Shown piece after piece: positions 7,730 through 40,872 of a stretch of DNA of 64,000 nucleotides. The position numbers were made by a program, and so were the translations under genes. The stretch's first letter is position 1. Every line of letters begins with the position of its first letter. This stretch comes from Amphiscolops sp. MND2022 (lineage: Eukaryota), in contig OZ076409.1 in assembly GCA_964187785.1 (NCBI GenBank), positions 63,366,001 through 63,430,000 on the forward strand. The letters are read 5' to 3'. The notes under the pieces were generated by a model that ran no database searches, was not told the origin of the DNA, and saw nothing but the letters and a program-made list of their open reading frames with translations.

Positions 7730-10313
7730 TTATCTCTGCTTCACGAAGCTTGCATAAAACTTGAGCATAGTAGGCACTTCTTGGTTTGCTTCCTCCAATA
7801 TTGATATCAACTTTCCTGATTGACCCATGTTGTTTTGGGTAAAAAAGGTGTATGCAACTCCAGTTTTGTCGCTTCTGGCTGTCCTGCCGATCCGGTGCAC
7901 GTAATCTTCCGAGCTCGTGGGGTAATCATAATTGATCACGTGTTTAATATCGGAAATGTCGAGCCCCCTAGCGGCAACATCCGTTGCTATCAAAATCGGA
8001 ACTTGGTTCTCTGCAAACTGCTTCAAGACCAACTCGCGATCTGACTGCTTCTTGTTGCCATGGATACAGGCAACTTTGAAGTTGTTCTGGGTCAAAGTCG
8101 TGGAAAGCTCGTTGACCGCTTTTTTGGTGTCACAGAAAATTAGGGTGCGAAGAGTTTTATCCTTTTCCACCAAACTGTTGAGAAGGTCCAAAATTTTGGC
8201 AGGTTTTTCTTCTTCCTCGCAGCATTCAACTATTTGCGTGATTTGATGATTTGCACTGAGGGTTTTGGAGCCAACGTTCACTTTGGTGTAGCTATCTGAA
8301 CACAGAACCACATGCAAAAGTTTGATTACAACCATTAAAAAATTATACTTCAGTGATTGAGACAAAAAATTGCTTAGAAAACATGGTTTGCGTCAATCAA
8401 TGTTTCAAAAAAAGGTCTTTGAGTATTTTCATGCAGTTCATCAAAAGGCCACTAGTGAATGGCTTTTTTATGAGATAGATGAAGAAACTCTTCTCACCCA
8501 AGAAATCTTCGGCTAATTGCCACACAGAATCTGGCCAGGTGGCACTGAACATGAGCGTTTGTCTCTGGGGTCTGATGTTGTCCACTATAGTCCTGATCTG
8601 CGGCTCGAAACCCATGTCCAACATCCGGTCTGCCTCGTCCAGTACCAGGTACGACACTCTCATCACGTCGACCTACCAAAATTCTCTCAATGAAACTTTA
8701 AAACATCAGAAAATTGCCCCTTGCTGAGACATACACCAAACAACTAACTATCGCAGCCTCGAAATGCTTCATTAGCTTAAGTCATGAACCAATTTCAACA
8801 TAACGAAGTTTACCTGCTTGGACTCCATGAAGTCGATAAGTCTTCCGGGTGTGGCTACCAGAATCTCGGGATGTTTGTCAGCCAGCTTCTGACCTTGCTC
8901 GTGCCTGGGTGCCCCACCATACACACACACAGTGTTCAGACCCAAGGGAGAAGCGAACTCTTCAGTGACTTGGGAAACTTGTTGCGACAATTCCCTGGTG
9001 GGACAAAGCACTAACATAATTGGACATTTTTTATCACGGGGAGTTTCTTTGTTGTTAATGATATGGACTAATCCGGGAATTACAAAAGCACACGTTTTTC
9101 CCGATCCAGTTTGAGCAAGTCCAACCATGTCGTCTCCGGATAAAGCTATTGGCCATGACTGGGCTTGAATTGGAGTGGGTTTGTCGAAATTTTTGGACTT
9201 GATAATTGATAAAATTTGCTCAGGCAAATCGATGTCATCGAAGCTCATACAAGGTCTAGGCTGGAATCGGCCAGTCAATGTAACTTGATGGTCGTCGAGA
9301 TAATCGTCGATTTCATCATCGTCTCTGTCAGCTAGATGATCATTCTCAGAATAAAAATCTTTCTTTACAGGCGGAAGATCCAATTCCTCGAAGTTCGGCG
9401 GAGTTAGAGACGACTTGGAGCTTTCTAAAGAACTCGAACTAGTCTTTGAGTTGGAAGCAGTTGATGATACAGAGCTTGAGGGCTTTTGCCATGTGGATCC
9501 AAATGATTTGCTGGAATTTCCCGCACGGAAGGTACTGTTTGTTTTGGATGCAGACGGAGTTGGTTTTTTATAATCTGATTGATGATTACTGACTTTGGAA
9601 ACATGGTTAGGCGTTGGCCAGGTTTTCCGACCATAGGCACTGTAGTTCGAGGAGGAATTTTGAGTGTTTGGAGGTCCGCCCCATTCGTTTTGTCTGAATG
9701 TTGTGGCAGACGTATCATTGTGAAATGGTCTATTGTATCTGTTGTAAGAATCGTCATACGAACCGCCAGTAGCTACATCGTATTGGGTGTTACTGTAGCC
9801 ATCATTGTAGTTATAATCTTGGTAATGCTGATTTTTGTATTCTTGTTGTCTTTCATAAGCTCCGAAGCCTGTAGGGTTTGAACTTCCGTGGGCATTCAAA
9901 TCTCTATTATTCCAGTTACTTGAACCGGCATCAGGAAAACTTTTGAACCTATTCAGAGCAGATGTCGGTGTTTCACTTTGGGGATAACGGCTGGGAGGTT
10001 GGCTGTCATAGGATGATCGAGAATACATATATCCATTGATAGAATCGCGTTGGCGAGCATCTTGAGTGTAAGGGTCCGATGATTGGAATTGACTGAGGCA
10101 AGATTTGCTGTAGGACGACGTATCATTCGCAGGGGTCTGCCATGATGATATGGACTCAGTTCTGCCGTAGTCTGCATTGTTGCTCCATCTGCTGGACTGC
10201 TCGTGGCTTCGAGTGTGGGGAGGAGGGTAACGAGTTGTGTGGTCTTCGTAGAAGTGGCTGTTCACATCTCCTCCTCCGCCCTTGTAGGGGAAGGATGAAG
10301 AGTAGAATGACAT
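7730..10313 (-). CDS. DDX5: ATP-dependent DEAD-box RNA helicase, DDX5/DDX17 (p68/Dbp2) family; 3 exons, ~746 aa
   Basis: Exons 10313-8814, 8672-8498 and 8295-7730 with GT-AG introns join in frame (2241 nt). Motifs: Q (FDKPTPIQ), [37 protein letters not shown] and [20 protein letters not shown] (p68-like). AATAAA lies ~20 nt after the stop. DDX5 versus DDX17 orthology is not resolvable. Confidence 0.92.
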
Positions 10314-10546
10314 GCAGCGAGATCTGAAATTATCATCTTCATTACAAAAAGATGGAAAACGAAACTCATTATAAAACGCGATGGTTCTAGTTCGTGGTTA
10401 CGAATGAATTCAGAACATCATAAATGACCATCAAAGTCAAGTTGCAGAGGATTTAGGCAACCTTTCATAAACGTTTTGTATATTTGTCCTACGTTTTTTG
10501 TAAGATCAAAGGAAGAATATTGAAGCAAAAATTTCAATTTATATGT

Positions 10547-38400: not shown

Positions 38401-40673
38401 TGCCGAAAAACTGAAAGCAGGGACCCTTTGGGGTTTTTCAACATCCAGTCTGTCGCAAAACATCAAAAAATTAAAGGGGGAAATTTTTATTTTCGGAAAA
38501 AAATCTCACAGTGCCGAAAAAAATGAGTGGGGGGACCCTTTGGGATTTTCCAACATCCATTGTCGCAAAACAGCAAAAAAATTGAAGGGGGACCCTTTGG
38601 GGAAAATTTTTTTCCGCTAAAAAAGTCTCGCAGTGCCGAAAAAGATTGAAAGAGCGGAACCCTTTGGTCTCGCTCAGTATGATATGTTACGCGGGAAAAA
38701 AGGAAAAACCTTTTTAGTTCAGTTCGCTGGACCAAATAATGCAATTTGGTGCAATAATATTTTGTAGAACTTTTAAGAACTATTTCGGTCAGTTCGTGTG
38801 GATTGAAAAAAAAGCCACTATAATAGTCGCGTTTCACTTCATGAAGCGCCGACTAAAAATAGGGTGCCATATATGTTGTTGTTTTGTGGATTCCCAGATT
38901 AACTGGAGGGATTTCTCACTATGTTTCATTAAAGACATATTCAAGTGTTGCGGCAGTTTTGGCAGTCACACGCGATTGTATTTATGACTGGCTTTCGATA
39001 GATAATGGCCATTTTTAAACCCAGTGCCATGAATAATTTCCATATATTTATGGCCATATATGGTTATGTCCATTGTGGTGTAACCTACCCACACTGGATA
39101 TCGGAAAATGCTTCCCCATAAGCAGTGCATCCGTCCAAAAGGAACGGCCAAAAAGAAAGGTACCGCCCAAAAGGAACGGCCAAAAGGAAAGGTACCGTCC
39201 AAAAGGAACGGCCAAAAGGAAAGGTTTAATAGTGCCGTTTAGAATGTAATCCTGCCCTTTGGGACAATGATTCGGTATAAATAGAGTTGATTTCTTATCA
39301 TTTATTCATTATTAATTTAACCTTCATTCGAATCAGTCGTCTTTTGTTATTCGACCACACAAATTGGTGACCCCGACGTGATGGAAGATCCGACACAATT
39401 TGAAGACTCTACCATTGCTTATAATCACACATCTAACGGAGGTAGCGGTGATCGCACAAACAATGCTCAAGTGGGGAGAATAACAATCAAACCTCCAACT
39501 TTTTATAGAAGCAACCCGCAAGTCTGGTTCAGACAACTCGAGTCCCAATTTGCACTAGCAAATATCACTAGTTCCCAAACAAAGTTTCACCACGTCATGG
39601 GCGCATTACCAGAGGACGTCGCAATCAACCTCCCACTGGACGTTACTTCTTACGAATCTCTAAAGGAGCAGATAATTGGAATCTATCAAAAAAGTCGACA
39701 GGAGTTATTGGAGGAGGCCTTAGGTTCAATTTCCCTTGACGGCCAAAAACCGTCAGTCTGTTTCCTACGCATAAAACGCAAATTAGAAGATTGCCATTTA
39801 ACCGTCGATGACCAATTTTTACGCCACAAATTCCTCCAAGCGTTACCCCCAACGACACGTGTTGCCCTGTCCGCACATCATAATTTGGCCTTGGACGATT
39901 TCGCTAAACTTGCGGATACGATATCCAGTGTGGGTAGGTTACAGTGGCTTTCCAATCCCTGACTGTAACAGTCGAGTTGTTTTATTCTAAAAGCGCCGAT
40001 CAAAATACAGTCATTGAGATTGCAAAATTGCAAAAAAAGCTCTGCATTTGAGAGTGCAAAGTTGCAGTTCAGGAACAAGTCTGGCCTCAGATTACAGGAA
40101 AGTCGTGCCTGTAAATGTTCGCAGATGTCAGTTGAGATATCACGGAAGAGGGGGACTTAGCTAGCTGAATTCTCGCCAAAAAAATGAATGAAATGTTTGC
40201 CAAGTTCATTTTTATTACTTCAAATCATGTAGAGGTTTTTAGCATCGCGATACGCATGGAATGATTATCGAAAGACCCTGCTCCCGGCTAAATTGGAAGA
40301 GCAGCTATTTAAATTCATCAAAAAGAATCGGCACTTGAAGTTGGTAAATGCGAACTTGAGCAGCTTGGCATTTCAAAGTTAGCTTGTATTTTTCATCCGT
40401 AATCAAAAGGTTCCCGTCATCTGTATATTTGAATTTTTCGCAGTTCAAAACACGGACTGTCACTATCCCAGCCTTGATTAATATTTTTCGTAGAAACACT
40501 TGAAGAAAATCAATTGAAAAACAAATCAGTTCGCAATTTTTATTGAGTAACCAATGGAGTTTTCTTCCACTGAGTAGAATCTTACCTTCGAGGAATTCCG
40601 CGAGAGGAGCAGACGACTGGCCCGTTCTATCAGCATAAACCTCCACATACAAAAAAGTATCGACTAAGCTCAT
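35414..40673 (-). CDS. Tandem-domain rhodanese sulfurtransferase (TST/MPST family), paralog B; 3 exons, ~262 aa
   Basis: Exons 40673-40586, 36332-36074 and 35855-35414 join in frame (789 nt). They give EFLEGHIPNA, VLPPDEFAKVL..KGV, SRLWWLLTYYGHQNVSIVGGYKSW, LCDARG and catalytic CNSGMMA. The first exon and start codon are less certain. Confidence 0.82.
36907..37309 (+). mobile_element. Helentron/DINE-1-like non-autonomous repeat copy
   Basis: 5' ACAAGCTGGGACCGGCCCAAGTCGGCACC; 3' hairpin TAGTCGGC...GCCGACTA followed by an A-run. Confidence 0.7.
38170..38859 (+). mobile_element. Helentron/DINE-1-like repeat copy nested in the hAT element
   Basis: GCCGGGACCGGCCCAAGTCGGCGCCATATCCAAGGCTC start, tandem GGGGACCCTTT units and GCGCCGACTAAAAA end; similar to 26210-26699. 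Confidence 0.75.
39079..39943. mobile_element. Non-autonomous TIR element with TGT..ACA ends and 4-bp TSD (Ginger-like), carrying an LTR-retrotransposon fragment
   Basis: Perfect 25-bp TIRs TGTAACCTACCCACACTGGATATCG (39079-39103 and 39919-39943). GTGG is duplicated at 39075-39078 and 39944-39947. Confidence 0.8.
39245..39918 (+). mobile_element. Ty3/Gypsy 5' fragment: short LTR (~117 bp), tRNA-Trp PBS and truncated gag
   Basis: TG..CA segment 39245-39361 contains TATAAATA. The PBS TGGTGACCCCGACGTGAT (39365-39382) is complementary to the 3' end of eukaryotic tRNA-Trp. The gag motif IKPPTFYRSNPQVWFRQLESQFALANITSSQTKF is present, and the ORF is cut by the right TIR. Confidence 0.85.
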
Positions 40674-40872
40674 GGCGTATAAACAGCTATCAACACTTCT
40701 GAAACAAATTTTCTCCTCTATCAGATATCATGGATCTTCGTCATCAATCAAGAACCATGTGTATCATCATGTTGGGGGAGAAGACACACACCCGTGGTCT
40801 GTAATGAAAGTAGGGAACCCCATACCAGCCACTATCCCAGTGGACCAGTAGCAAAAAGAAACAACCAACAAA

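Follow-up and report, generated by a model that had tools for sequence, protein, structure and literature searches.

A candidate spliced-leader-resolved transcription unit joining UTP6 and a DDX5-like helicase gene in an acoel genome

Are neighbouring genes on one strand of an acoel chromosome transcribed together and then separated by spliced-leader (SL) trans-splicing? The question is raised by a 64,000-nucleotide stretch of the genome of Amphiscolops sp. MND2022 (contig OZ076409.1, positions 63,366,001 to 63,430,000), here called the window and numbered from its first letter. Its minus strand carries four genes with uninterrupted spliced frames in the order rhodanese B > rhodanese A > UTP6 > DDX5-like helicase. 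Acoels hold a contested deep position among bilaterians. Operons of the SL-resolved kind are found in nematodes, tunicates, flatworms and chaetognaths; it is debated if they had one origin or many. In nematodes, tunicates, Macrostomum and chaetognaths the leader is added at acceptors of downstream genes and frees these from a common precursor (PMC12460157, PMC8629364, PMC7986045). For the acoel Symsagittifera roscoffensis it is reported that 30.2% of genes (10,433) are SL trans-spliced and that there is one leader sequence (PMC9911081).

A sequence-only reading of the window had proposed that all four genes form one polycistronic unit. The part comprising rhodanese A, UTP6 and the DDX5-like gene has gained support from a spliced leader in the lineage, from linkage of the last two genes in three other species and from acceptors located before true starts; the inclusion of rhodanese B has not. 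We lean slightly towards a single SL-resolved transcription unit that holds UTP6 and the DDX5-like gene and that probably has rhodanese A as its first gene. The strength of the proposal differs between its junctions. That between UTP6 and the DDX5-like gene is likely to lie within such a unit, that between rhodanese A and UTP6 has a little less than an even chance of doing so, and membership of the junction between the two rhodaneses is improbable. Rhodanese B is probably a separate upstream gene. These likelihoods, and those attached to other explanations below, are judgements and were not computed.

Gene order, spacers and acceptor sites

The gene models predict proteins of 746 aa (DDX5-like), 578 aa (UTP6), 283 aa (rhodanese A) and 262 aa (rhodanese B), and bear out the earlier statement that the four genes are co-directional on the minus strand (Table 1). 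Measured from stop to ATG, the A-UTP6 and UTP6-DDX5-like spacers are 688 and 233 nt, as had been claimed, and the B-A spacer is 9,752 nt. The distance from the UTP6 stop codon to the next acceptor is 223 nt. The mean intergenic distance, computed from the S. roscoffensis table, is about 22 kb, under which a simple exponential gives 1% and 3% for spacers of 233 and 688 nt. The introns of UTP6 sum to 8.8 kb, and neither short spacer contains window-repeated sequence. AATAAA is found close behind the stop codon only at the last gene, DDX5-like (7710), which counts weakly in favour of a single unit. In a Pfam scan of 83 selected open reading frames (ORFs) from flanks, spacers and introns, every family above the curated cut-off was of transposon type and no host gene was detected; the four genes therefore look like an isolated group surrounded by mobile elements. 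Between rhodanese A, UTP6 and the DDX5-like gene, the scanned spacer and intron ORFs gave no Pfam family above the cut-off. When 10 ORFs of the window were looked up for exact matches, 2 had one. DNA scans for related loci returned distant helicase loci (2 in JGI metagenomes and 1 in prokaryote genomes, 35-53% identity) and no acoel loci.

TTTCAG was confirmed 25, 6, 62 and 10 nt upstream of the ATGs of rhodanese B, rhodanese A, UTP6 and the DDX5-like gene. The hexamer occurs 49 times on the minus strand of the window and 44 times on the plus strand, and 52 of the 1,121 minus-strand ATGs (4.6%) have one no more than 68 nt upstream. It is present at 4/4 claimed starts and at 1/12 modelled internal acceptors (Fisher p 0.003); with rhodanese B counted as cis, the comparison becomes 3/3 starts against 2/13 internal acceptors (p 0.018). 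Because of this enrichment the four sites are probably real acceptors. The motif alone cannot separate trans from cis. The acceptors of rhodanese A, UTP6 and the DDX5-like gene precede true start codons, the UTP6 start being conserved in S. roscoffensis. The UTP6 leader is non-coding since it contains in-frame stops, and there is no donor scoring at least 6/9 between the stop codon of rhodanese A and the UTP6 acceptor.

These features bear on the idea that the locus consists of tightly packed ordinary genes with cis-spliced 5′-untranslated region (UTR) exons and no leader, their order being plain microsynteny. TTTCAG is a good general acceptor which also ends one modelled internal intron, weak donors are present upstream of the DDX5-like gene and of rhodanese A, and rhodanese B itself shows the cis pattern. 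The A-UTP6 spacer, with no donor of 6 or above, is however difficult to reconcile with this arrangement, as is the uniform use of TTTCAG at the three starts when internal acceptors vary. We regard such an arrangement as rather unlikely.

In the SL-resolved unit that we favour, a single polymerase start would lie upstream of rhodanese A or of UTP6, and transcription would continue across both spacers (688 and 233 nt), within which each upstream mRNA would be 3′-processed. The spliced leader of acoels, which the host species presumably possesses, would be trans-spliced at the TTTCAG sites at 21108 and 10324, and perhaps at 25668. Leader addition would recap the downstream cistron and strip the upstream ATGs of the spacer.

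The same acceptors could serve genes that are trans-spliced one by one, each from its own promoter in or above the short spacer, with TTTCAG ending a short outron. Most trans-spliced genes lie outside operons in Macrostomum and chaetognaths (PMC8629364, PMC12460157); a compact promoter fits in 688 nt and the 5.3-kb last intron of UTP6 could house the promoter of the helicase gene. Against this, the 223 nt between the UTP6 stop codon and the acceptor would need to accommodate a promoter and an outron as well as a 3′ UTR, and the linkage persists in three other species. Monocistronic trans-splicing thus appears unlikely, although it is the strongest of the alternatives that we considered.

Table 1 Features of the locus in window coordinates
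Feature	Position	Strand	Details
Rhodanese B as first modelled, 262 aa	35414..40673	-	exons 40673-40586, 36332-36074, 35855-35414
TTTCAG upstream of rhodanese B	40699..40704	-	25 nt before the ATG as first read; probably serves a 93-nt intron (40791-40699) in cis
Candidate true first coding exon of rhodanese B	40792..40823	-	putative; ATG 40823, donor 7/9; would give 281 aa; frame and phase fit
C/D-box snoRNA-like element	40712..40781	-	boxes C, D′, C′ and D at 40770-40721; 5-bp terminal stem; lies within the candidate intron of rhodanese B
Rhodanese A, TST/MPST-type, two domains, 283 aa	21734..25661	-	exons 25661-25599, 24962-24776, 23811-23571, 22598-22439, 21934-21734
TTTCAG acceptor of rhodanese A	25668..25673	-	6 nt upstream of the ATG; the MITE-like repeat ends about 55 nt above it
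A-to-UTP6 spacer, 688 nt	21046..21733	-	no AATAAA; no window-repeated sequence
UTP6, 578 aa	10547..21045	-	exons 21045-20847, 19231-19069, 17802-17657, 17036-16217, 10955-10547; Pfam U3_assoc_6
TTTCAG acceptor of UTP6	21108..21113	-	62 nt upstream of the ATG; best case of an unpaired acceptor
UTP6-to-DDX5-like spacer, 233 nt	10314..10546	-	no AATAAA; no window-repeated sequence; all 7 of its ATGs precede the acceptor
DDX5-like DEAD-box helicase, 746 aa	7730..10313	-	exons 10313-8814, 8672-8498, 8295-7730; Pfam DEAD and Helicase_C; motifs present
TTTCAG, candidate SL trans-splice site of the DDX5-like gene	10324..10329	-	10 nt upstream of the ATG; start conserved in two acoels
Intact recent BEL/Pao LTR retrotransposon, 7,361 bp	27922..35282	+	LTRs 27922-28317 and 34890-35282; ORF 28677-34721, 2,014 aa
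MITE-like repeat with short inverted ends	25730..26701		26210-26701 repeated elsewhere in the window; remainder from terminal motifs only
LTR, long terminal repeat; MITE, miniature inverted-repeat transposable element; snoRNA, small nucleolar RNA.

UTP6, the helicase and their linkage in other acoels

UTP6, in a model one residue shorter than that of Table 1, aligns end to end with XP_063713260.1 of S. roscoffensis at 43% identity, and identities across Convolutriloba macropyga and S. roscoffensis are 39-43%. UTP6 works in the small-subunit processome. The DDX5-like protein has a low-complexity N-terminus of about 300 aa that is rich in Ser, Asn, Tyr and Thr. Over the core it is 77% identical to XP_075266209.1 (C. 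macropyga) and XP_063714925.1 (S. roscoffensis), with which it agrees in its start and in its last 12 residues. The closest matches of the helicase core are three ENA proteins (94, 77 and 74% identity), two of which cluster with the named acoel RefSeq proteins. In a tree of 17 helicases the window protein and its acoel relatives form a long-branched clade of four members (100/100) that groups the C. macropyga and S. roscoffensis proteins. This clade adjoins other DDX5 copies of the same two species, long branches meeting at that outer join, as the tree tool warned. The host is thus an acoel distinct from both these species, and the helicase, on the evidence of the tree, an acoel-specific DDX5/DDX17 duplicate; its orthologues are labelled uncharacterized in both RefSeq genomes. 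DDX5 acts in RNA processing. The locus had been described as joining two ribosome-biogenesis genes, which can safely be said of UTP6 only and not of this lineage-specific helicase. Two further proteins, P0004 and P0005, are labelled sturgeon contamination and resemble ordinary DDX5; they were not used.

Relatives of UTP6 were obtained by a HMMER search with UTP6 exon 4, which gave 8 matches; an earlier search against longer proteins had given none among 1,589 candidates. Pieces of UTP6 and of the DDX5-like protein were found on ENA contigs of identical size both in S. roscoffensis (129,800; 156,847; 191,707; 527,962) and in C. macropyga (299,914; 627,317). A third, nearer acoel has UTP6, the DDX5-like protein and a rhodanese A piece (65% identity) on a contig of size 141,074, and UTP6 with rhodanese A on one of 97,077. 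Judged by equal contig sizes, UTP6 therefore accompanies the DDX5-like gene in 3/3 other species found, rhodanese A in one and rhodanese B in none. Sixteen of the 17 linked pieces tested are 94-100% identical to named RefSeq proteins; P0186, a member of the C. macropyga UTP6 cluster, proved to be unrelated and was dropped. The C. macropyga RefSeq proteins XP_075266209.1 (DDX5-like) and XP_075266221.1 (UTP6) are 12 accession numbers apart. The linkage of UTP6 with the DDX5-like gene persists although UTP6 itself has diverged to 39-43% identity.

A cis-spliced read-through fusion of UTP6 to the helicase, made alone or beside the separate proteins, was also considered. Splicing from a GT located at the stop codon of UTP6, with an intron at 10550-10324, would make an in-frame, stop-free join and give a protein of 1,327 aa. 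This donor matches only 4/9 consensus positions, and by a rough estimate such an in-frame join arises by chance in a few percent of junctions. Both named acoels have separate RefSeq proteins for UTP6 and the helicase. Furthermore, C. macropyga UTP6 ends in Asn, so that its last codon cannot end in G, unlike that of the window gene. The fusion is accordingly very improbable.

Several observations weigh against an SL-resolved unit of UTP6 and the DDX5-like gene with rhodanese A. The linkage is read from equal contig sizes, and the contigs of one species amount to one event. Its support is weakened further in that it may reflect general microsynteny of these acoels. In S. roscoffensis XP_063713260.1 (UTP6) and XP_063714925.1 are 1,665 accession numbers apart, on a chromosome of the same size. 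The 64-kb window has no match to a 19-nt segment of the leader of S. roscoffensis. With the looser motif YTNCAG, used by Macrostomum, the enrichment at starts is non-significant (4/4 against 5/12, p 0.09), and the spacers are no richer in T (37%) than two modelled introns (35-38%). The UTP6-DDX5-like spacer holds two weak donors (6/9) and none of 7 or above, the background being 7.7 such donors per kb. True donors in the models score down to 4/9, and weak donors can therefore not be dismissed. Thirteen donors scoring at least 6 are present in the 2.3 kb upstream of the rhodanese A acceptor, making cis pairing of that site possible. Finally, operons account for only some 40% of the trans-spliced genes in Macrostomum (PMC8629364).

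Four perfect palindromes are present in the introns of UTP6 (12366-12464, 13718-13782, 17918-17959 and 17957-18092) and another at 63341-63443, the arms measuring 21-67 nt and the loops 0-2 nt. Fold-back duplications, hairpin RNAs or artefacts of the assembly could account for them. A microRNA reading was rejected, the Rfam matches being the perfect palindromes themselves and below the gathering score.

The two rhodaneses and the spacer between them

Rhodaneses A and B both match Pfam PF00581 and have two rhodanese domains with the active-site Cys loop in the second; among solved structures in the PDB their pieces match rhodanese, TST and MPST best. Both are predicted to be tandem-domain rhodaneses of the TST/MPST type. 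They are 30% identical to each other and thus not a recent tandem pair, and the models have no intron positions in common. The third intron of rhodanese A (23570-22599) is best modelled as GC-AG, a junction supported by homology. We note that the first intron (25598-24963, 636 nt) seems to be missing in the nearest acoel relative, where exons 1 and 2 form one ORF (P0167). The same 5-nt word stands at both ends of this intron, which hints at intron gain by insertion.

The site at 40699-40704 had been taken for an unpaired acceptor in front of the rhodanese B start codon. Instead, the 25 nt ahead of that codon are free of stops in its frame, and a 93-nt GT-AG intron can link them to an ATG-led exon (40823-40792). 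Among the four TTTCAG sites only that of rhodanese B has an in-frame upstream exon, against a background of 474/9,249 acceptor-phase combinations (5.1%). The conserved His-Ile motif is preceded by 30 residues in unextended rhodanese B, 49 in the extended form and 46 in rhodanese A; the figure is 39-53 in 16/17 homologues, the remaining one having been dropped as the pattern matched a later site. In a profile of 17 rhodaneses the N-terminal extension scored 137.2, equal to the mean of 200 shuffled extensions (137.2). There is no gain for the extension because the first 24 residues of rhodanese B are not aligned to the profile. Our assignment of the extension, which we consider probable, relies on the frame, the donor, the length and a snoRNA-like element located within the candidate intron. 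It therefore appears that the TTTCAG of rhodanese B is most likely an internal cis acceptor.

The element at 40712-40781 has the box and stem features of a C/D-box snoRNA and is a candidate for one. Its four-box match is the sole one in the window and was seen in 0/100 shuffles, with a pattern written after the element had been seen. The Rfam C/D matches are weak and below the gathering score, and the fold z value is non-significant. A tandem pair of copies of about 305 nt each (40873-41482; 96-99% alike) stops 50 nt short of the candidate start of rhodanese B. A plus-strand ORF with a DUF7041 match lies in the long intron of the gene (39321-39962); we take it to be gag-like.

A unit comprising all four genes would have to be transcribed through 9.7 kb, including an antisense retroelement. 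Rhodanese B is co-directional with the other genes and carries the same hexamer. The retroelement is recent, and in its antisense orientation would be better tolerated by a transcription unit; repeat-inflated operon spacers are described in Macrostomum (PMC8629364). The BEL/Pao element inserted 131 nt past the rhodanese B stop codon, its LTRs matching at 391/393 aligned bases and being flanked by a 4-bp target duplication. This agrees with the earlier description of the B-A spacer as mostly a recent 7.4-kb LTR insertion. Of the further kilobase or so of repeats in that description, 492 nt were confirmed by self-comparison, the rest being recognised from terminal motifs only. Without the LTR element the spacer measures about 2,390 nt, and without the repeats as well 1.4-1.9 kb, with an AATAAA at 27116. 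The four-gene unit is unlikely because the acceptor of rhodanese B looks cis, because B is at least 1.4 kb from A after repeat removal and because an antisense retroelement lies behind B. The short N-terminus of unextended rhodanese B relative to its homologues, the 5.1% background for its upstream exon and the AATAAA within the spacer point the same way. No rhodanese B orthologue from another species was present among the 20 matches of a search with rhodanese pieces, and none of these matches came from S. roscoffensis or C. macropyga; the search was weak, as the known rhodanese A orthologue at 65% identity scored only 42 bits and clusters can be masked by tiny representatives (513 aa under 32 aa). 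Taken as a whole, the four-gene unit is most doubtful.

Other mobile sequences were noted in the window. The BEL/Pao polyprotein contains an acidic, Ala-rich insert encoded by a repeat of 24-nt period (32592-32972). Another BEL/Pao element, broken and carrying LTR-like direct repeats, is found at 56183-63568, and a decayed retroelement at about 47200-53100 retains pieces of a zinc knuckle, reverse transcriptase and RNase H. A fragment of a Tc3-type transposase is located at 3500-3745 on the plus strand.

Comparison with described operons

S. roscoffensis, though another species than that of the window, belongs to the same animal group, has orthologous UTP6 and DDX5-like genes that are linked, and has an AT-rich, LTR-rich genome (PMC9911081). 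Neither ‘operon’ nor ‘polycistron’ occurs in the available text of that paper; its authors used trans-splice and poly(A) peaks to ‘separate trans-spliced genes’ (PMC9911081). Table 4 of a 2008 article enters acoel operons as ‘?’ (PMC2481426). We found no description of an acoel operon in the literature searched, which excluded subscription journals and bioRxiv supplements; the S. roscoffensis annotation may already show such units.

In the flatworm Macrostomum lignano a single leader is added to all trans-spliced genes at YTNCAG sites, and trans-spliced genes are enriched for conserved genes (PMC8629364). Its operons resemble the proposed unit in having mostly 2-3 genes with repeat-adjusted spacers below 1 kb. 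Rhodanese A > UTP6 > DDX5-like agrees with that 1-kb repeat-adjusted rule and B > A does not. Macrostomum differs in belonging to another phylum, in a modal spacer of about 100 bp and in that its operons were called with SL reads (PMC8629364). Candidate operons of the chaetognath P. gotoi have genes less than 250 bp apart, no operon-specific leader and an enrichment for nitrogen and protein metabolism (PMC12460157). UTP6 > DDX5-like falls within the 250-bp rule even when measured stop to start, whereas A > UTP6, at 688 nt, may exceed it. The P. gotoi operons were validated by SL reads (PMC12460157). B > A departs from both short distance and one-strand adjacency, the plus-strand BEL/Pao element lying in between. 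With C. elegans and tunicates the locus has in common co-oriented genes and, under our proposal, a leader added at the downstream gene (PMC7986045). Intercistronic distances there are shorter, the medians being 1 bp for Ciona, some 30 bp for Oikopleura and some 100 bp for C. elegans (PMC7986045). Nematodes employ a dedicated SL2 for downstream genes, in contrast to the one leader sequence of S. roscoffensis (PMC7986045, PMC9911081).

We tentatively propose, while rating it somewhat below an even chance, that acoels possess SL-resolved operons of which rhodanese A > UTP6 > DDX5-like would be a three-gene example. Should this be so, it is conceivable, at a similar level of reserve, that the UTP6 > DDX5-like junction has been held over four species, that it recruited a lineage-specific helicase duplicate and that its spacers have been kept repeat-free while repeats enlarged the introns and flanks. 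The junction has named orthologues on both sides (XP_063713260.1/XP_063714925.1 and XP_075266221.1/XP_075266209.1) and can be studied at once in genomes and RNA-seq data that are public. The mechanism would not in itself be new; if the proposal is true, it would place operons in an animal lineage where they seem to be undescribed.

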